From positions 1-9,313 of IMG/VR virus record IMGVR_UViG_2526164634_000020: a DNA stretch of 9,313 nucleotides. The stretch is one strand, 5' to 3'. The position numbers and the translations under genes are program-made. The DNA is from a virus (lineage: Duplodnaviria; Heunggongvirae; Uroviricota; Caudoviricetes). The notes beneath the pieces were generated by a model, which searched no databases, was not told the DNA's origin, and saw nothing but the letters and a program-made list of their open reading frames with translations. This document shows positions 1-9,313 of the stretch, in pieces (position 1 is the stretch's first letter; the number at the start of each line of letters is the position of its first letter).

Positions 1-1514
1 AACGATATTATTCCGGCCGACCACTGCCTGCATGATGTGCAGGATATGAGTACGCTGAATCATCCGAAGGCAGACCTGAGCAAAGGGCAGTACGGCTGTG
101 TCGGCCAGGGCTTACATATTGCCAAAAAACTGCTCCCGTATATCCCGAATAACGCGGGGATCCTGCTGGTACCATGCTGTCGTGGTGGTTCGGCATTCAC
201 CCAGGGCGCGGAGGGGGACATTCAGTGCGGACACGGGGGCCAGCCAGGATTCGGCACGCTGGGGGGTGGGTAAACCGTTATATCAGGACCTGATTGCGCG
301 CACTAAAGCTGCATTACAGAAGAACCCGAAAAATGTGTTGCTGGCGGTGTGCTGGATGCAGGGAGAGTTTGACATGAGCGCCGCCACCTACGCACAGCAA
401 CCTGCGCTGTTTACAGCCATGCTGAAGCAGTTTCGTGCTGACCTCACTGTGTTTAACGCGCAGTGTCATGGTGGCAGTGCTGTAAATGTGCCGTGGATTT
501 GTGGTGACACGACGTATTACTGGAAAAATACATACGCTACCCAGTACGACACCGTGTACGGCGGGTATAAAAACAGGGAGAGTGAGGGCGTTTATTTTGT
601 GCCCTTCATGACAGACGGTAACGGCGTCAATACCGCCACTAACGCACCGGCAGAAGATCCGGATATTCCGGCATCAGGATATTACGGTGCGGCATCGAGA
701 ACGAATGGAAACCAGGTATCATCAAACCGCCCGACACATTTCAGTTCATGGGCGCGCAGGAGCATTATTCCGGATCGTATGGCAACCGCTATTCTGAACG
801 CAGCCGGGCGCACCTCAGCTTTCATCAGTGGTAAGGCACCGGAAATCAAACCCTCGCCCGGCGTCGACACGCCATCGGGGCCGTCTGAAGATGCATCCGT
901 ACGCACAATCTCCCTGTTGCCGACAGCCGGAGAGGCTGCTGCGCAGGGCTGGACCATTAAGGACGGCGGAATTCAGTTGTCGGGTGGTGTATTTAAGATC
1001 GCCAAGCAGAGCAATAAAACCTGGTCCCTGATGCATCCGGTGGATGACGCAGTCTCCCTGCTGACACGGGGTGGCAGACTGAGCTGTAAGTTTCGACTGT
1101 CAGGCGCACTGACCAACAACCAGTTCGGCCTGGGAATTTATCTGTATACCGATGTAGCGTTACCTGACGTCGTGGCGATGACCGGGACTGGTAACCCGTT
1201 CCTGATGTCGTTCTTCACCCCAGACCACAGACGGCAAACTGAATCTGATGCATCACAAGAAAGCAGGAAACACAAAGTTGGGCGAGTTCGGGAATTACAG
1301 TAATGACTGGCAGACGCTGGAACTGGTGTTCACCGCCGGCAGTGCCACGGTTACTCCGAAACTGAATGGAGTGGCTGGCCCGGCATTCCAGGTCATAAAA
1401 GACAGTCTGACACTGGGGCTGAATGCGCTGACGCTGACGGATATTACCAAAAATGCAGCGTATGGCGTTGAGATAGAAAGTCTGGTGCTGGAGATAAATG
1501 CACCGGCAGCATAA
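1..1514 (+). pseudogene. nanS: Prophage sialate O-acetylesterase, NanS-p-like (SASA/DUF303 family), 5'-partial at window edge, two apparent +1 frameshifts
   Basis: Frame 1 from the window edge reads ...HCLHDVQDM...GQGLHIAKKLLPYIPNNAGILLVPCCRGGSAFTQGAEG; frame 2 continues ...TGASQDSARWGVGKPLYQDLIARTKAALQKNPKNVLLAVCWMQGEFD...PWICGDTTYYWK...TNAPAEDPDIPASGYYG...; I recognise these motifs from E. coli NanS and prophage NanS-p esterases. Frame switches at the G5 run 213-217 and again at the C4 run 1218-1221; the C-terminal part runs in frame 3 to the stop at 1512-1514. ORF-track entries 37..273, 98..1303 and 1248..1514 are pieces of this one gene. Confidence 0.6.
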
Positions 1515-1521
1515 TAAAAAA

Positions 1522-1551
1522 AGCCAGCGCCCACTCTGAAGGACGCTGGCT
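1522..1551 (-). terminator. Hairpin with flanking A/T run, candidate intrinsic terminator (better formed for minus-strand transcription)
   Basis: GCCAGCG (1523-1529) pairs with CGCTGGC (1544-1550), loop about 14 nt; A7 at 1515-1521 becomes a U-run after the stem only on the minus strand; plus-strand side is followed by TAAAAC. Confidence 0.3.
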
Positions 1552-1725
1552 AAAACGGGTAGATGTACTTCACATGATACTTATACTTGGCAGTACATTT
1601 TCTGACAGACAGTGACGGATGATGTCAAGATATTGTGTCATTTATAACCTGAATCAGGGGTGGCCGGAATGTTATCTGGCATTTTTAGCAGAGCCTGAAT
1701 GCCATAATCACGGCTCCCGGCGTTG

Positions 1726-1765
1726 GCCGTCAGTGGGTGACACTGGCGGCTTTTTTGTTTTTCTT
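1726..1765 (+). terminator. Strong rho-independent terminator upstream of the holin gene (tR-prime-like)
   Basis: 10-bp stem GCCGTCAGTG / CACTGGCGGC (one G-U pair), 5-nt loop GGTGA, then TTTTTTGTTTTT; sits 40 bp upstream of S. Confidence 0.55.
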
Positions 1766-1806
1766 TACTTTCATTTTCTGTCGGCGGTGACGGAGACATA
1801 CATCAG

Positions 1807-2013
1807 ATGGAAAAAATCACAACAGGTGTGTCATACACCACGTCAGCGGTGGGGACGGGATACTGGTTACTGCAGCTGCTGGACAAAGTCTCTCCGTCCC
1901 AGTGGGTGGCAATAGGTGTGCTGGGGAGTCTGCTGTTTGGCCTGCTGACGTATCTGACAAACCTTTATTTCAAGATTAAAGAAGATAAGCGTAAGGCTGC
2001 GAGAGGTGAATAA
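1807..2013 (+). CDS. S: Class II holin, phage-21 S-type pinholin (68 aa)
   Basis: [68 protein letters not shown]; two TMDs plus charged C-tail; near-colinear with my recollection of phage 21 S21; stop overlaps the R start (TAATG). Confidence 0.8.
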
Positions 2014-2510
2014 TGTCGCCGTCATTACGCAAGGCTGTTGCTGCTGCTATTGGTGGTGGGGCTGTTGCCATAGCGTCTGTGCTCATCACTGGTCCGAGTG
2101 GTGACGATGGCCTGGAAGGTGTCAGCTACATACCATACGAAGATATCGTTGGCGTATGGACTGTATGTCACGGACACACCGGAAAAGACATCATGCCCGG
2201 TAAAACGTATACCGAAGCAGAATGCAAAGCCCTCCTGAATAAAGACCTTGCCACGGTCGCCAGACAAATAAACCCGTACATCAACGTCGATATACCGGAA
2301 ACAACGCGCGGCGCTCTTTACTCGTTCGTTTACAACGTGGGCGCTGGCAATTTCAGAACATCGACGCTTCTTCGCAAAATAAACCAGGGCGATATCAAAG
2401 GCGCATGTGATCAGCTACGGCGCTGGACATACGCTGGCGGTAAGCAATGGAAAGGGCTGATGACTCGCCGTGAGATTGAGCGTGAAGTCTGTTTGTGGGG
2501 GCAACAATGA
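2013..2510 (+). CDS. R: SAR endolysin, phage-21 R-type lysozyme (165 aa)
   Basis: N-terminal Gly/Ala-rich signal-anchor-release segment [30 protein letters not shown] followed by lysozyme core [21 protein letters not shown]...; immediately follows the pinholin, typical pinholin/SAR-endolysin pairing. Confidence 0.9.
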
Positions 2511-2944
2511 GCAGAGTAACCGCGATTATCTACGTTCTGGTCATCTGCCTCATCGTCTGCCTTTCATGGGCTGTTAATCATTACCGTGATAACGCCATCG
2601 CCTACAAAGAGCAGCGCGATAAAGCCACATCCATCATCGCTGATATGCAGAAGCGGCAACGTGATGTAGCAGAACTTGACGCCAGATACACAAAGGAGCT
2701 TGCTGATGCTAATGCGACTATCGAAAGTCTCCGTGCTGATGTTTCTGCTGGGCGTAAGCGCCTGCAAGTCGCCGCCACCTGTGCAAAGTCAACGACCGGA
2801 GCCAGCGGCATGGGCAATGGAGAAACCCCAGGACTTACAGCAGATGCTGAACTCAATTATTACCGTCTCCGAAGTGGAATCGACAGGATAACCGCGCAGG
2901 TTAACTACTTGCAGGAGTACATTAGGACGCAATGCCTTCGATGA
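2507..2944 (+). CDS. Rz: Rz i-spanin (inner-membrane spanin subunit)
   Basis: ATGA start/stop overlap with R; [34 protein letters not shown]... N-terminal TMD plus coiled-coil periplasmic region, closely lambda-Rz-like. The ORF-track start at 2495 is GTG; ATG 2507 is the more likely start. Confidence 0.85.
2706..2891 (+). CDS. Rz1: Rz1 o-spanin lipoprotein, embedded in the +1 frame of Rz
   Basis: AAGGAG at 2693-2698 about 7 nt before ATG 2706; [20 protein letters not shown] with lipobox VSAC, then proline-rich [13 protein letters not shown] as in lambda Rz1; lies entirely inside Rz. Confidence 0.75.
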
Positions 2945-3016
2945 TAGCGATAATTTTCCCATTATCTTTCATATGCGTGATTTTAGTTAGTTTTAGTCGC
3001 AACACGAATAAAACAG

Positions 3017-3043
3017 AGAACCACCCGCTATACGAGTGGTTCT
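3017..3043. terminator. Bidirectional intrinsic terminator between convergent Rz and the minus-strand small ORF
   Basis: 8-bp stem AGAACCAC / GTGGTTCT with 11-nt loop; T-rich on both sides (plus: GATTTACACTTTTG; minus: CTGTTTTATTCG). Confidence 0.4.
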
Positions 3044-3060
3044 GATTTACACTTTTGAAA

Positions 3061-3291
3061 CTAAAAGCTAAATACTTGAGCAAGAACAGCTAGCGCTGCG
3101 CAAAAAGCAGCCCGTTTATTCCATTTACTTTGTATTTCAATGGCTTTAAAACAACCCAGTGATGAGAAACTGCCTTGTTCCGTTTTTGGTGGGTGTTCTT
3201 TGGAAGATGCAAAACATGAAATAATCCAAAAAATGGCGGAAAAAATTCCAAAAATTATTGAAGGCAAATGATGCTCTTTCAAAAACTCCAT
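3061..3291 (-). CDS. Hypothetical small membrane or lipoprotein-like protein (76 aa), AT-rich accessory gene
   Basis: MEFLKEHHLPSIIFGIFSAIFWIISCFASS...; hydrophobic N-terminal segment ending in a lipobox-like IISC; convergent with Rz and followed on its own strand by the 3017-3043 terminator. No family recognised. Several T homopolymers make the frame fragile. Confidence 0.35.
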   Translation of the reverse strand: MEFLKEHHLPSIIFGIFSAIFWIISCFASSKEHPPKTEQGSFSSLGCFKAIEIQSKWNKRAAFCAALAVLAQVFSF

Positions 3292-3903
3292 GACTTAACT
3301 CTCTTAAAAGTTGCTAAACATCGCTCGCAAACAAGAAAGAAAAGTTCTGTTGCGGGCACTCCACAATTTAAACGCCACACAAGCAGCTATTAGGTGGACG
3401 GTTCCAAGATTGCTATCAACTGCCACCCGAATACCGTCAAAACTTGACGTCCAACCAAGAATTATTGAGTTGTAAACTCAACGCAATGATCTGGTTGGTA
3501 TAAATGTGACATATGTCATGAATCGACTAGTTGAGATAGTCAAGATGGGCTTGCTTGACATCATCACCACAACCGGAGCCAACAATGGCAGATTGCGTTA
3601 CCCAGATTTGATAAAGGCATTTTAGCCTGACATAACTATGCACTGTATCGTCGCCGTATTCCCGCATCAACAGAGACCACAGCCCGAGAGGGAGACTCCT
3701 CTGCGCGAGTGTGCGGGGATAATCAAAAACGATACACACCGGGGTTTACCGTGTTAACGGAGCGCGGCGTTGTCCCCTCATGGTCGCTGGTCCGGTGCGA
3801 TGGTGGAAGAAACCGGACGATGTGTTACCTCGCAAGCTCTGTTATGTCATGTGTCTGATTTGTGATTTAAGTCGGATAATTGTCATTGCCATTAAGCAGA
3901 GGA

Positions 3904-3934
3904 TTGATGACCGACAGGGCTGCATTGTTAGAAT
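3904..3934 (+). promoter_or_regulatory. Candidate sigma70 promoter for the TonB_C lipoprotein gene
   Basis: TTGATG (3904-3909), about 19-bp spacer, TAGAAT (3929-3934), roughly 30 nt upstream of ATG 3967; pattern match only. Confidence 0.2.
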
Positions 3935-3966
3935 AAGACTTATTCTTATCTATGCCGGGAATAAAA

Positions 3967-4293
3967 ATGAAAAGAAATCTTCCGTTAATTATTTTGTTGT
4001 CTTCTTTGGTTATGGGCTGTACGCAACATAAAACAGATATGCCTCGACAGTTGGTTAAGGCATTACCACAATATCCGGCCTATGCCGCGGCAAATTATAT
4101 AAAGGGACGGGTTGATGTGAAGTTTGATATTGGTGCTGATGGTACTGTCACCCGAATTGAGTTTATCCGTTCAGAGCCGCACCATCTGTTTGATGAGCAG
4201 GTTGTAAAGGCGATGGCAAAATGGCGATTTGAGAAGGACAAGCCGCGTAAAGGCGTGAAGAAAACATTTATCTTTAGTCCTTCAGCACCCTGA
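3967..4293 (+). CDS. Outer-membrane lipoprotein carrying a stand-alone TonB C-terminal domain (about 108 aa)
   Basis: Signal peptide MKRNLPLIILLSSLVMGC with lipobox and +2 Thr; mature part LPQYPAYAAANYIKGRVDVKFDIGADGTVTRIEFIRSEPHHLFDEQVVKAMAKWRFEKDKP aligns motif for motif with the E. coli TonB C-terminal domain (QYPA..A....G.V.VKFD...DG.V......S.P...F...V..AM..WR.E..KP). The ORF-track start 3952 lacks an RBS; 3967 is preferred. Confidence 0.7.
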   Translation: MKRNLPLIILLSSLVMGCTQHKTDMPRQLVKALPQYPAYAAANYIKGRVDVKFDIGADGTVTRIEFIRSEPHHLFDEQVVKAMAKWRFEKDKPRKGVKKTFIFSPSAP

Positions 4294-4484
4294 TTATTTT
4301 ATCAGAAGTTAATTATCACTCTGTTGCTATTCAGTACATCCCTGCAGGGTAAAGTCTTGTTTCGCCGGATATGAAGATGAAATATTGTTAGAAGACAGTA
4401 GCTACCGGTTCCTGTAACCGAACGTTCATTTCTCGTTATTTTTCATGCTGGCCGGGCGCAGGTGCTTTGCACTGAGAGATCCCC

Positions 4485-5693
4485 TCATAATTTCCCCAAA
4501 GCGTAACCATGTGTGAATAAATTTTGAGCTAGTAGGGTTGCAGCCACGAGTAAGTCTTCCCTTGTTATTGTGTAGCCAGAATGCCGCAAAACTTCCATGC
4601 CTAAGCGAACTGTTGAGAGTACGTTTCGATTTCTGACTGTGTTAGCCTGGAAGTGCTTGTCCCAACCTTGTTTCTGAGCATGAACGCCCGCAAGCCAACA
4701 TGTTAGTTGAAGCATCAGGGCGATTAGCAGCATGATATCAAAACGCTCTGAGCTGCTCGTTCGGCTATGGCGTAGGCCTAGTCCGTAGGCAGGACTTTTC
4801 AAGTCTCGGAAGGTTTCTTCAATCTGCATTCGCTTCGAATAGATATTAACAAGTTGTTTGGGTGTTCGAATTTCAACAGGTAAGTTAGTTGCTAGAACCC
4901 ATGGCTCCTTTGCCGACGCTGAGTAGATTTTAGGTGACGGGTGGTGACAATGAGTCCGTGTCGAGCGCTGATTTTTTCGGCCTTTAGAGCGAGATTTATA
5001 CAATAGAATTTGGCATGAGATTGGATTGCTTTTAGTCAGCCTCTTATAGCCTAAAGTCTTTGAGTGACTAGATGACATATCATGTAAGTTGCTGATAGGT
5101 TTCCAGTTTTCCGCTCCTAGGTCTGCATATTGTACTTTTCCTCTTACTCGACTTAACCAGTACCAACCCAGCTTCTCAACGGATTTATACCATGGCACTT
5201 TAAAGCCAGCATCACTGACAATGAGCGGTGTGGTGTTACTCGGTAGAATGCTCGCAAGGTCGGCTAGAAATTGGTCATGAGCTTTCTTTGAACATTGCTC
5301 TGAAAGCGGGAACGCTTTCTCATAAAGAGTAACAGAACGACCGTGTAGTGCGACTGAAGCTCGCAATACCATAAGTCGTTTTTGCTCACGAATATCAGAC
5401 CAGTCAACAAGTACAATGGGCATCGTATTGCCCGAACAGATAAAGCTAGCATGCCAACGGTATACAGCGAGTCGCTCTTTGTGGAGGTGACGATTACCTA
5501 ACAATCGGTCGATTCGTTTGATGTTATGTTTTGTTCTCGCTTTGGTTGGCAGGTTACGGCCAAGTTCGGTAAGAGTGAGAGTTTTACAGTCAAGTAATGC
5601 GTGGCAAGCCAACGTTAAGCTGTTGAGTCGTTTTAAGTGTAATTCGGGGCAGAATTGGTAAAGAGAGTCGTGTAAAATATCGAGTTCGCACAT
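4485..5693 (-). CDS. tnp: IS10 transposase (402 aa), apparently intact
   Basis: MCELDILHDSLYQFCPELHLKRLNSLTLACHALLDCKTLTLTELGRNLPTKARTKHNIKRIDRLLGNRHL... matches the Tn10/IS10 transposase over its full length. Confidence 0.95.
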   Translation of the reverse strand: MCELDILHDSLYQFCPELHLKRLNSLTLACHALLDCKTLTLTELGRNLPTKARTKHNIKRIDRLLGNRHLHKERLAVYRWHASFICSGNTMPIVLVDWSDIREQKRLMVLRASVALHGRSVTLYEKAFPLSEQCSKKAHDQFLADLASILPSNTTPLIVSDAGFKVPWYKSVEKLGWYWLSRVRGKVQYADLGAENWKPISNLHDMSSSHSKTLGYKRLTKSNPISCQILLYKSRSKGRKNQRSTRTHCHHPSPKIYSASAKEPWVLATNLPVEIRTPKQLVNIYSKRMQIEETFRDLKSPAYGLGLRHSRTSSSERFDIMLLIALMLQLTCWLAGVHAQKQGWDKHFQANTVRNRNVLSTVRLGMEVLRHSGYTITREDLLVAATLLAQNLFTHGYALGKL

Positions 5694-5754
5694 CTTGTTG
5701 TCTGATTATTGATTTTTCGCGAAACCATTTGATCATATGACAAGATGTGTATCC
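5686..5754 (+). ncRNA. IS10 RNA-OUT antisense RNA (region retained in the truncated IS10)
   Basis: Position inferred from remembered IS10 coordinates (pOUT near nt 115 directed toward the outside end); the region contains the long imperfect inverted repeat ACATCTTGTTGTC...GACAAGATGT that forms the RNA-OUT stem. Boundaries approximate. Confidence 0.35.
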
Positions 5755-5844
5755 ACCTTAACGTAAGCGTACAGCCTGAACCGTCTGGTCAGAATCTGAC
5801 GAATTAGACAAAGTGGTGTCCACCAAATAAGTAGTGGGAACCAA

Positions 5845-5873
5845 TGAGGTAGCCTGAGTTTAACGGACACTCC
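5845..5873 (+). repeat. Left terminal inverted repeat of the IS3-family element
   Basis: See element entry; hand alignment, imperfect. Confidence 0.4.
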
Positions 5874-5908
5874 TTCCTGAAATAGAATGGCATCAGAAGG
5901 AGCTAATA

Positions 5909-7048
5909 ATGAGCAGAAAAACCCAACGTTACTCTAAAGAGTTCAAAGCCGAAGCTGTCAGAACGGTTCTTGAAAATCAACTTTCGATCAGTGAAGGTGC
6001 TTCCCGATTATCTCTTCCTGAAGGCACTTTAGGACAATGGGTTACCGCCGCCAGAAAAGGGCTCGGTACTCCTGGTTCCCGCACGGTGGCTGAACTGGAA
6101 TCTGAAATTCTGCAACTGCGTAAGGCGTTAAATGAAGCTCGCCTTGAGCGAGATATATTAAATTGCACAGGAGTCGCTGAAAAATACGCGTTAATCGAAC
6201 AATGGCGACAACAATTTCCCATTGAAGCGATGTGTCAGGTATTTGGTGTATCCAGGAGCGGTTATTACAACTGGGTACAGCATGAACCCTCAGACAGAAA
6301 ACAAAGTGATGAGCGGCTAAAACTGGAGATTAAGGTGGCGCATATCCGCACTCGCGAAACATATGGAACCCGGCAGCTCCAGACGGAGCTGGCAGAGAAT
6401 GGCATCATCGTTGGTCGTGACCGACTGGCACGTCTTCGTAAGGAGCTAAGGCTACGCTGTAAGCAGAAACGCAAGTTCAGAGCGACTACGAACTCGAACC
6501 ACAATCTGCCAGTTGCGCCAAATCTGCTGAACCAGACGTTCGCTCCTACAGCACCAAATCAGGTCTGGGTGGCGGACCTGACGTATGTTGCCACACAGGA
6601 GGGATGGTTGTACCTCGCTGGCATCAAAGATGTTTATACGTGCGAAATTGTCGGCTACGCCATGGGAGAGCGCATGACAAAAGAGCTGACAGGTAAAGCC
6701 CTGTTTATGGCGCTCAGGAGCCAGCGCCCACCTGCCGGGCTAATCCACCACTCTGATCGAGGTTCACAGTACTGCGCATACGATTACCGTGTCATACAGG
6801 AGCAGTTTGGTCTGAAAACATCAATGTCGCGTAAAGGTAACTGTTACGACAACGCTCCGATGGAAAGCTTCTGGGGAACGCTGAAAAATGAGAGCCTGAG
6901 CCACTATCGTTTTAATAACCGGGATGAAGCCATCTCAGTAATACGGGAATACATTGAGATTTTCTACAATCGTCAGCGTCGTCACTCTCGTCTGGGGAAT
7001 ATCTCCCCGGCAGCCTTCAGGGAAAAATACCATCAGATGGCTGCTTAA
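5909..7048 (+). CDS. IS3-family transposase, single fused OrfAB-type ORF (379 aa)
   Basis: AAGGAG RBS 7 nt before the ATG; N-terminal HTH (MSRKTQRYSKEFKAEAVRTV...) and leucine zipper (ELESEILQLRKALNEARLERDIL) typical of IS3 OrfA, joined in frame to an rve/DDE core (VWVADLTYV, HHSDRGSQYCA, NAPMESFWGTLKNE, NRQRRHSRLGNISP). Confidence 0.9.
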   Translation: MSRKTQRYSKEFKAEAVRTVLENQLSISEGASRLSLPEGTLGQWVTAARKGLGTPGSRTVAELESEILQLRKALNEARLERDILNCTGVAEKYALIEQWRQQFPIEAMCQVFGVSRSGYYNWVQHEPSDRKQSDERLKLEIKVAHIRTRETYGTRQLQTELAENGIIVGRDRLARLRKELRLRCKQKRKFRATTNSNHNLPVAPNLLNQTFAPTAPNQVWVADLTYVATQEGWLYLAGIKDVYTCEIVGYAMGERMTKELTGKALFMALRSQRPPAGLIHHSDRGSQYCAYDYRVIQEQFGLKTSMSRKGNCYDNAPMESFWGTLKNESLSHYRFNNRDEAISVIREYIEIFYNRQRRHSRLGNISPAAFREKYHQMAA

Positions 7049-7061
7049 AAAAAGAACAAAT

Positions 7062-7091
7062 GGTAGTGTCCGCTATTGCCAGTACACCTCA
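7062..7091 (+). repeat. Right terminal inverted repeat of the IS3-family element
   Basis: See element entry; hand alignment, imperfect. Confidence 0.4.
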
Positions 7092-7202
7092 ACATTCCAC
7101 CATGCATTCCGATTAACGCCGCATAGCCAGTTGGACTTTGCTACTTTGTGAGAGGTAGTACCTTCTATCCAGTGCGAATCTAATTAATGGAATAAATGAT
7201 TT

Positions 7203-9199
7203 ATGAGTGAAAATGATACAATCCCAAAGAAGTCTACAAGTCAGATTAACAAAGCGGTATTCTTTACATCTGCTTTGCTAATTTTCCTTCTTGTCGCCTT
7301 TGCCGCCGTATTCCCGGATGTCGCCGACAAAATTTTAAACTACTTCAGCAACAAATCTTCACGAATGCCAGCTGGTTCTACATCCTTGCTGTGGCCCTGA
7401 TTTTACTGAGTGTCACGTTCCTTGGACTCTCACGCTACGGTGATATCAAGCTGGGCCCGGACCATGCGCAGCCTGATTTCGGCCACCACTCCTGGTTTGC
7501 GATGCTTTTTTCGGCAGGGATGGGGATCGGCCTGATGTTCTTTGGCGTTGCCGAACCTGTAATGCATTATCTTTCGCCACCCGTTGGCACTCCAGAAACC
7601 GTTGCGGCAGCTAAGGAAGCAATGCGTCTGACCTTTTTCCACTGGGGACTGCACGCATGGGCAATTTATGCCATTGTGGCGCTGATTCTGGCGTTCTTCA
7701 GTTACCGTCACGGTCTGCCTTTAACTCTGCGCTCCGCACTCTATCCCATTATTGGCGATCGCATATACGGACCTGTAGGACATGCGGTTGATATTTTCGC
7801 TGTTATAGGCACGGTCTTTGGCGTTGCGACATCACTGGGTTACGGTGTTTTGCAGGTGAATGCCGGTTTGAACCATCTTTTCGGGGTGCCCATCAATGAA
7901 ACGGTGCAGGTAATTCTGATCGTGGTCATCACGGGGTTAGCGACGATTTCAGTGGTGTCCGGTCTGGATAAGGGAATACGTATCCTGTCTGAACTCAATC
8001 TGGGTCTGGCTTTGTTGCTCCTGGCGCTGGTCCTGTGTCTGGGACCAACCGTGCTTCTGCTGAAGTCATTTGTGGAAAATACGGGCGGTTATCTTTCGGA
8101 ACTGGTGAGTAAAACGTTCAACCTTTACGCGTATGAGCCCAAGTCGAGCAACTGGCTGGGGGGCTGGACATTACTGTACTGGGGATGGTGGCTTTCATGG
8201 TCGCCGTTTGTGGGGATGTTCATCGCACGGGTCTCCCGCGGGCGAACCATTCGCGAGTTTGTCACCGGCGTGCTGTTTGTTCCCGCGGGTTTTACGCTAA
8301 TGTGGATGACGGTGTTTGGTAACAGCGCGATCTATCTCATTATGAACCAGGGGGCCACAGACCTCGCCAATACTGTTCAGCAGGATGTGGCGCTGGCCCT
8401 GTTTAATTTCCTGGAGCATTTCCCGTTCTCTTCTGTGCTGTCATTCATTGCAATGGCGATGGTCATCGTCTTCTTTGTAACGTCTGCTGATTCGGGGGCA
8501 ATGGTTGTGGATACTCTGGCATCAGGTGGAGTGGCAAACACACCCGTCTGGCAGCGAATATTCTGGGCCTCGCTCATGGGCATTGTTGCAATTGCGCTTC
8601 TCCTTGCCGGAGGGCTAAGTGCGCTGCAAACGGTGACAATAGCGAGTGCATTGCCCTTCTCAGTGATCTTACTAATATCTATATACGGACTTTTAAAAGC
8701 TTTGCGCCGGGATTTGACCAAGCGTGAAAGCCTGAGCATGGCGACAATTGCTCCTACGGCTGCACGTAACCCAATTCCTTGGCAGAGAAGGTTACGCAAT
8801 ATCGCGTATCTGCCGAAGCGATCTCTTGTGAAACGTTTTATGGACGACGTTATCCAGCCCGCCATGACGCTGGTTCAGGAGGAACTGAACAAGCAGGGGA
8901 CGATAAGCCACATTAGTGATGCAGTCGACGATCGTATTCGTCTTGAAGTCGATTTGGGCAACGAGCTGAATTTTATATATGAAGTGAGGCTTCGCGGGTA
9001 TATCTCACCGACCTTCGCGCTCGCCGCAATGGATAATGATGAGCAGCAGACTGAACAACATCGATATTATCGCGCTGAGGTTTATCTCAAAGAAGGCGGT
9101 CAAAATTATGATGTGATGGGCTGGAACCAGGAACAGCTGATTAATGACATACTGGACCAGTACGAAAAACACCTGCACTTCCTGCACCTGGTTCGTTAA
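7203..9199 (+). CDS. BCCT-family transporter, BetT-like choline/betaine transporter, with apparent -1 frameshift near the 5' end (possible pseudogene)
   Basis: BCCT signature WTLLYWGWWLSWSPFVGMFIARVSRGRTIREF; C-terminal cytoplasmic tail resembles BetT. The N-terminus (7203-7355, frame 3: MSENDTIPKK...ADKILNYFSNK) continues as IFTNASWFYILAVALILL... in frame 2; the shift lies at the A3 run 7353-7355. ORF-track entries 7203..7400 and 7391..9199 are one gene. Confidence 0.8.
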
Positions 9200-9261
9200 T
9201 AGCAACATGCCGTCCTGGGGGCGGCAATTATTATCCCGGCCGCAATATGGGGGAATGCAGA

Positions 9262-9313
9262 ATGATTTCACGCTGGAAATGGATGCTGAAGCAGACAATT
9301 AAAAAACTATGGT
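9262..9313 (+). CDS. Possible 5' end of a downstream gene (partial, unknown product)
   Basis: ATG 9262 with G-rich SD-like GGGGGAA about 7 nt upstream; frame open to the window end (MISRWKWMLKQTIKKLW...). Too short to classify. Confidence 0.2.
   Translation, partial: MISRWKWMLKQTIKKLW

Follow-up and report, generated by a model that had tools for sequence, protein, structure and literature searches.

The window, which is the whole 9,313-bp contig AIHD01000030.1 of the draft assembly GCA_000250275.2 of Escherichia coli DEC12D, carries a transporter gene that can be assigned by its sequence to betU, an already known gene for a betaine-specific osmoprotectant transporter of the BCCT family. The A run at codons 43-44 of this gene is one base short, so that translation from the native ATG would stop after 65 residues and the remaining 621 betU codons would be left in another frame. 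Comparison with intact copies and with the rest of the contig suggests that a homopolymer miscall is somewhat more probable than a true null mutation.

Organization of the contig

The window contains the following features.

1-4471: lambdoid prophage lysis region (nanS-like esterase, holin, lysozyme RrrD, lysis protein, TonB-like protein)
4472-5762, minus strand: IS10 (ISVsa5-like) copy, about 38 bp of the outside end missing
4485-5693, minus strand: IS10 transposase
5686-5755, plus strand: RNA-OUT of IS10 (Rfam match)
5763-5844: island remnant of 82 bp, located in other E. coli downstream of an lpxM-like gene
5845-7091, plus strand: IS600 derivative (IS3 family) with TG...CA ends
7092-7202, plus strand: betU leader, 111 bp from the IS600 end to the start codon
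7203-9199, plus strand: transporter gene betU, split into two ORFs
7203-7400, plus strand: betU 5' fragment ORF, frame 3, ATG start, 65 aa
7329-7332, plus strand: frameshift site, A4 here and A5 in intact betU (codons K43-N44, AAA AAT)
7334-9199, plus strand: betU body, frame 2, native codons 45-665 and stop
7391-9199, plus strand: betU 3' ORF, frame 2, GTG start, 602 aa
9262-9313, plus strand: first 52 bp of the DUF2254 gene, which follows betU in the mobile cassette and is cut here by the contig end

Through the IS10 copy, the betU island is joined to the lysis region of the prophage. None of the complete E. coli genomes carries this IS10/betU-island junction, and the complete O111:H2 genome of the sister strain 12A has the prophage without it.

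A missing adenine at codons 43-44 splits betU

The division of the gene into an ATG-initiated ORF of 65 aa and a GTG-initiated ORF of 602 aa, reported by the first-pass annotation, is real in the record. The shorter ORF consists of 43 native codons, which encode the N-terminus and TM1 (AVFFTSALLIFLLVAFAAVF), followed by 22 out-of-frame codons and a TGA. The first in-frame start of the betU body is the GTG at 7391 in the middle of TM2 (WFYILAVALILLSVTFLGLS). This codon is located seven bases before the stop of the first ORF and is preceded by no evident Shine-Dalgarno sequence; stop and start of the two ORFs overlap (GTGGCCCTGA). As deposited, TM1 is thus encoded in another frame than the rest of the protein and the 12-TM reading frame is interrupted.

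According to the ORF translations, the body frame is open from 7304 or earlier and the N-terminal frame up to 7400. Any one-base insertion in this interval therefore joins the two ORFs, and ORF logic cannot place the lesion. Base-by-base alignment with intact copies revealed a single in-gene indel, the absence of one A at 7329-7332, where the window has GACAAAATTTT and the intact copies have GACAAAAATTTT. The first-pass annotation was right in proposing a frameshift of the one-nucleotide deletion type, but it had assigned the lesion to the A3 run at 7353-7355. This run exists, and it is A3 in the window and in intact genes alike. Reading it as A4 gives the right length of 665 aa but wrong residues 44-51, ILNYFSNK in place of NFKLLQQQ. 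The alignment places the true junction between ...FPDVADK and NFKLLQQQIFTNASW, and translation of the intact gene yields ...FPDVADK NFKLLQQQ IFTNASWFY..., in which the F-x-x-L-Q pattern is retained in homologues down to about 60% identity. By ORF logic alone the lesion had thus been put about 25 bp off, with eight incorrect residues as the result; intact copies, used for comparison, locate it exactly.

A 61-base query centred on the short run (7300-7360) was compared with complete E. coli genomes and plasmids. Matches were obtained in 1,949 complete E. coli genomes (1,987 records), and none was identical to the window. All of these records fell in the 95-99% identity band (98.4% among the matches listed), had A5 and differed from the window over 7300-7360 by exactly one base. 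Over the same stretch none of the 1,353 PLSDB plasmid records was identical to the window, and all but one were in the single-difference identity band. The reading frame was intact in every complete E. coli genome carrying the gene (1,949/1,949). Many complete E. coli chromosomes share 99.7% identity with the window across 7050-9313; their annotation shows a 1,998-bp gene for a 665-aa "BCCT family transporter" (WP_001293435.1). From 7485 to 9313 there are zero differences to strain NT1F25.

The transporter is BetU, a paralogue of BetT

With the family model TIGR00842 (cut-off 407.55), the intact protein scored 541 bits and the 602-aa ORF of the window 529 bits. The same ORF scored 709 bits with NF007399, and PF02028 is recorded for the gene call of the window. 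The W-rich TM8 and G-rich TM3 segments (WTLLYWGWWLSWSPFVGMFIARVSRGRTIREF, SAGMGIGLMFFG) are found in the frame-2 ORF and align to BetP and BetT. These results bear out the earlier description of a BCCT transporter with a BetT-like full-length architecture, and the intact protein also scored above the cut-off of the BetT subfamily model in NCBIfam (751 versus 695 bits). Orthology to betT was ruled out by a full-length identity of only 42% to K-12 BetT (b0314) and by the lack of betIBA neighbours: the gene is flanked by IS600 and the DUF2254 gene, not by betI, betB and betA.

The name betU follows from comparison with L015, a copy flanked by IS1 that resides on an IncHI1 plasmid of Salmonella. 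Both published primers with which the two genes of Tn6062 had been cloned (PMC3139670) match this copy without mismatch, and its Tn6062-type BetU is identical to the E. coli chromosomal protein at 663 of 665 positions (99.7%). The exact primer matches together with this near-identity of the products identify the window gene as betU.

BetU was first described in uropathogenic E. coli. The E. coli protein (Ly et al. 2004, J Bacteriol 186:296, as cited in PMC3139670 and PMC4411257) is a second BCCT member of this species; its specificity is for betaine, that of BetT for choline (PMC4411257). Both osmoprotection and uptake of glycine betaine and proline betaine have been reported for BetU and Tn6062 (PMC3139670, PMC4411257). 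In work by Holt et al. (2011, PMC3139670), Tn6062, a composite transposon of IncHI1 PST6 plasmids, was shown to contain betU (SPAP0106) and a second putative transporter and to make growth of S. Typhi possible at 0.8 M NaCl. Both betU and the IS-bounded cassette are hence already known. As in the E. coli locus, betU of Tn6062 is followed by the DUF2254 gene, an IS abuts its short leader, and the protein is the same. The window differs from it by the A run that is one base short, by private changes of two amino acids and at three places in the leader, and by the flanking IS, which is IS600 in the window and IS1 in Tn6062.

BetU and K-12 BetT align from end to end and have in common the BCCT fold and a conserved cytoplasmic domain at the C-terminus (about 160 aa). 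BetU differs in sequence, as given above, and in its reported substrate, which is betaine and not choline (PMC4411257). The aspartate motif GIGID of TM3 is absent in BetU, which has GMGIG instead. The unwound part of TM3 reads AGMGIGLMF in BetU and, identically, in BetP, and AGIGIDLMF in K-12 BetT and in the structure of a "high-affinity choline transport protein". The G153D substitution in BetP reportedly shifts specificity towards choline with H+ coupling. The TM3 motif of BetU thus appears to fit its reported betaine specificity. The core of BetP, the Na+/betaine symporter of C. glutamicum (PDB 2WIT, 4AIN and further entries), aligns over BetU residues 13-513 (E ~1e-97); unlike BetP, BetU possesses a long BetT-type C-terminal domain and lacks the N-terminal extension. 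The best full-length structural relative of BetU is 8YBQ, which has the same long C-terminal domain. Many database records call BetU "choline transporter BetT", whereas motif and literature indicate betaine.

Sequencing artefact or real mutation

Comparison of the contig with its closest relatives revealed five indels over 9.3 kb, each of them a change of one base in the length of a homopolymer (G4 to G5 at 213, C3 to C4 at 1218, T2 to T1 at 1660, T2 to T3 at 7200 and A5 to A4 at 7329). Three of the five break ORFs that are intact elsewhere. The changes at 213 and 1218 split the prophage esterase, a single ORF of about 620 aa in relatives, into three frames, and no sequence identical to the window at these two insertions was found among 1,027 and 795 complete E. 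coli records (2,715 and 1,164 places), respectively. Neither the resulting esterase fragment of 345 aa nor the BetU fragment of 602 aa was seen on any other contig. The DEC drafts were presumably pyrosequenced. Three private ORF-breaking homopolymer changes within 9.3 kb fit a homopolymer-sensitive platform and a poorly covered, repeat-rich contig. The missing A is, with some preference, attributed to a homopolymer-length miscall of the draft assembly, in which case the betU gene of DEC12D would be intact.

The short run is not confined to DEC12D. The 65-aa betU product was also called in 19 contigs of other assemblies, and the N-terminal frameshift fragment (...VADKILNY...) was found on at least five allelic backgrounds, Klebsiella alleles included. 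Four of these assemblies (L004, L005, L011 and L012) have deletions also at other betU homopolymers of at least five bases (T6 at 7506, G6 at 8158, G5 at 8350 and 8494), which marks these sequences as error-laden and is expected of platform error. Three assemblies (L003, L009 and L010) have A4 without any other in-gene indel, which makes it probable that real A5 to A4 mutations exist. Homopolymers are, moreover, true slippage sites and real hot spots of mutation.

Genuine replication slippage from A5 to A4, which would have inactivated betU in DEC12D, accordingly has to be given serious weight, and its probability is put at somewhat below one half. A4 is the sequence as deposited, it stands alone in the three assemblies just named, and its presence on several distinct haplotypes or alleles is what a slippage hot spot would produce; the nearby private changes, two of them non-synonymous and one altering TTGAAC to TTGGAC in the leader, are compatible with a copy on which selection no longer acts. 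However, three private ORF-breaking homopolymer changes per 9.3 kb exceed what real decay readily explains, A4 occurs in none of the complete E. coli genomes, and neutral decay would not cluster seven differences in 455 bp and leave the other 3.1 kb without any. In JGI metagenome contigs, neither the A4 allele nor the private variants were found.

Private variants cluster around the 5' end of betU

The seven differences were found by comparing positions 5763-9313 (3,551 bp) with strain NT1F25. They comprise T7030C, A7134G, T7180C, an additional T at 7200, the missing A at 7329, A7481G and T7484C, and all lie within the 455 bp from 7030 to 7484, a clustering with a probability of about 3e-5 by chance. 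This segment covers the IS600 end, into which T7030C falls, together with the leader and first 94 codons of betU. Of the seven differences, five are A:T>G:C transitions and two are homopolymer changes of plus or minus one base. Each of the five substitutions was private in comparison with 11 other loci, and the extra T was present in no other copy examined.

The private variants of the leader are G7134, C7180 and the extra T at 7198-7200 (T3 versus T2). The position of A7134G is occupied by A in every other copy aligned there. The extra T falls in the interval that follows the conserved GGAATAAAT element and precedes the ATG; in native orthologues the length of this interval varies by 1-2 nt. 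Within the gene, the two substitutions at 7481-7484 (plus strand) are non-synonymous (S95G and Y96H) and change PDFSYHSW to PDFGHHSW. This pair was absent in 1,537 E. coli records, in about 80 homologues and in JGI metagenome contigs. Gene conversion from a divergent betU allele was considered and rejected, as no copy from Klebsiella, Enterobacter, Salmonella, Citrobacter, Raoultella or Serratia has any of the variants.

The five substitutions are not explained by homopolymer miscalls and could therefore mark a genuinely mutated segment. Localized error-prone synthesis beside the IS end, for instance break-repair-associated mutagenesis, might have knocked out betU, but this is regarded as unlikely. 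If such a burst were real, the A run, at which the frameshift recurs on E. coli and Klebsiella alleles, would constitute a natural off-switch hot spot in a plasmid-borne osmotolerance gene. As to the preferred miscall, it may be conjectured that the 455-bp span, about the length of one pyrosequencing read, reflects a consensus of few reads, possibly with amplification errors.

IS600 is an old neighbour of betU

The IS600 derivative was delimited by alignment to a Shigella IS600, both ends of which match, and the matches of other IS600 copies in E. coli genomes end at 7091-7095. The element shares 98% identity over its whole length and the same terminal repeats with IS600 of Shigella and E. coli. 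Unlike these, the window copy has a single fused ORF of 379 aa (5909-7048), resulting from the loss of 16 bp, and with them of the orfA/orfB frameshift site, at 6162/6163, and in E. coli it has a fixed position beside betU. The transposase profile NF033516 scored 399 bits on the element, which is recognizable as an IS3-family member by descent. The end of an IS3-family element at 7091, 111 bp before the betU ATG, had been noted correctly in the first-pass annotation.

The same IS600 element is present at the same position in L001, and strains such as NT1F25 and 504239 have the IS600-betU junction next to an intact gene. All of 7050-9313, including the last 42 bp of IS600, is matched by about 1,930 complete E. 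coli genomes. These genomes share the junction and have an intact betU, which rules out a strain-specific IS insertion and, with it, a strain-specific disruption of the promoter. From this distribution, IS600 is judged to have been fixed beside betU in E. coli for a long time and to be no new insertion.

Other copies of betU have other neighbours. In Klebsiella IncF plasmids IS1 abuts the betU leader 27 bp further upstream than the IS600 junction, in the Tn6062-type copy IS1 is about 80 bp from the ATG, and in a plasmid of Enterobacter asburiae IS256 abuts the leader. In the copies of Citrobacter braakii and Raoultella ornithinolytica, the upstream sequence continues past the IS600 junction and is shared with Klebsiella; this continuation of the native sequence indicates that IS600 did cut something off, on one occasion, in the ancestral E. 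coli island. An orthologue with 93% identity is located in Serratia montpellierensis between genes for a class-V aminotransferase and lysyl-tRNA synthetase, at a locus with neither an IS nor a DUF2254 gene, and this looks like a native chromosomal setting. Together, betU and the DUF2254 gene form a cassette that has been carried by insertion sequences between chromosomes and plasmids.

A fragment of Tn6062 cloned with a leader of 73 bp confers osmotolerance, where read-through from the vector is possible (PMC3139670), and the IS1-adjacent betU of a Klebsiella plasmid is transcribed in E. coli (PMC6286996). In the window, the stretch corresponding to the 73-bp leader is entirely downstream of the IS600 end. 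A sigma-70 consensus scan of the leader, in the window and in one intact copy, found no site on the plus strand, so the position of the promoter stays inferred; the leader also gave no match to an Rfam family (riboswitch or sRNA) and no unusual fold. The betU promoter is probably contained in the last 70 bp or so of the leader, downstream of every IS junction seen. For mobile betU, an IS beside the promoter is the normal state and not damage.

The earlier reading as a whole, with the lesion in the A3 run at 7353-7355 and a native promoter displaced or replaced by the IS in this strain, is consequently held to be very unlikely. It draws on the 665-aa ORF restored by reading A3 as A4, on the proximity of the IS600 end and on the native sequence that extends upstream of the IS600 start in Klebsiella, Citrobacter and Raoultella, a trace of past truncation. 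It conflicts with the position of the only in-gene indel and the A3 run of intact genes, with the common junction of the complete E. coli genomes, with the osmotolerance conferred by Tn6062 behind a leader of about 73 bp and with the transcription of the Klebsiella plasmid copy.

Consequences of the frameshift

A functional role of the frameshift, be it programmed ribosomal frameshifting, transcriptional slippage or a phase-variable betU switch at the A run, is the least probable reading and almost certainly wrong: the frameshift recurs at one site across different backgrounds and the stop of the first ORF overlaps the start of the second, but frame restoration requires +1 with no in-register +1 or -1 slippery motif, the tracts known for slippage or contingency are far longer than A4/A5, an in-frame A5 is present in more than 99% of copies and A4 in no complete E. 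coli genome or PLSDB plasmid, and no stimulatory structure or Rfam family is found nearby. Programmed or phase-variable reading was rejected on the missing motif, the short run and the in-frame copies, and betU is taken to contain no recoding device, whether the missing A is an artefact or real.

Whether it represents an ordinary pseudogene or an ordinary error, a homopolymer frameshift of one base in a draft contig matters little. If the A is truly missing, the allele is, from its predicted products, most likely null: it would encode a 65-aa stub with TM1 only and a nonsense tail of 22 residues, and at best traces of a 602-aa product re-initiated at the GTG at 7391 inside TM2. DEC12D would in this case lose betaine uptake by BetU and keep ProP, ProU and BetT, which provide redundant uptake of osmoprotectants.

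Capture of the betU cassette and conservation of its leader

The part of the contig carrying the betaine transporter gene betU is organized as follows:

4472-5762, IS10/ISVsa5 copy, about 38 bp of the outside end missing
5845-7091, IS600 derivative
7092-7202, leader
7203-9199, + strand, betU
9262, start of the DUF2254 gene

In a comparison of the regions upstream of betU (L013, L014, L015 and L020-L022), the betU-DUF2254 pair was bounded by different insertion sequences, namely IS600, IS1 (at two positions) and IS256, each ending approximately 80-340 bp before the betU ATG. A Serratia betU orthologue (93% identical) has neither an IS nor DUF2254 next to it; an aminotransferase gene lies on one side and a lysyl-tRNA synthetase gene on the other. 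The cassette has thus been captured more than once, and every capture kept at least about 80 bp of leader.

Two leader segments, the short element TTTGCTAC-N(8-11)-GT(A/T)..AC (7139-7165) and a GGAATAAAT box before the ATG, were kept across the orthologous leaders (L020-L023, L067), even those of Serratia and Scandinavium, where no IS is present. Both are candidate signals that could act as promoter, operator or ribosome-binding site.

Frameshifts and homopolymer differences

The same ...VADK/ILNY... frameshift fragment recurred in betU alleles from both E. coli and Klebsiella, alleles that are not identical at other positions (P0046-P0056, a cluster of 63-67-aa N-terminal fragments). This marks the A5T4 run as a recurrent site, whether of real slippage, sequencing error, or both. 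In the prophage, insertions in homopolymers break the nanS-like sialate O-acetylesterase gene into three frames; they are listed here with a further site:

209-213, insertion G4>G5
1216-1219, insertion C3>C4
1660, further site

The G4>G5 and C3>C4 insertions were each absent from all complete E. coli genomes. The split esterase, a "pseudogene" that this small contig carries in addition to the frameshifted betU, points to systematic homopolymer error.

Comparison with an otherwise identical E. coli locus over 3,551 bp placed all seven differences within a 455-bp patch (7030-7484), a clustering with P ~3e-5. Two of the seven were ±1 changes in homopolymers and the other five were A:T>G:C transitions; all five transitions, and the homopolymer change that adds a T, were private to this contig. 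The patch could be a low-read consensus with amplification errors or the product of real local hypermutation.

The IS600 and IS10 copies

In the IS600 copy adjoining betU, a 16-bp deletion at 6162/6163 spans the orfA/orfB slippery site and thereby gives a constitutively fused OrfAB of 379 aa. At least 1,000 contigs carry exactly this fused protein, which makes the IS600 derivative a fixed and widespread form.

The prophage lysis cassette is joined directly to the betU island via the IS10/ISVsa5 copy, whose RNA-OUT (5686-5755) is intact despite the shortened outside end. This junction occurred in no complete E. coli genome; in the O111:H2 strain 12A, the prophage runs on into terminase genes. 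Either an IS has mediated a real rearrangement or deletion here, or repeats have led to a chimeric join.

Naming of the BetU protein

Many plasmid and older records (L013, L015 and many PLSDB records) name BetU "choline BCCT transporter BetT". Since the protein is only 42% identical to BetT, contains the BetP-type motif GMGIG and is betaine specific according to the literature, this database name is probably misleading.
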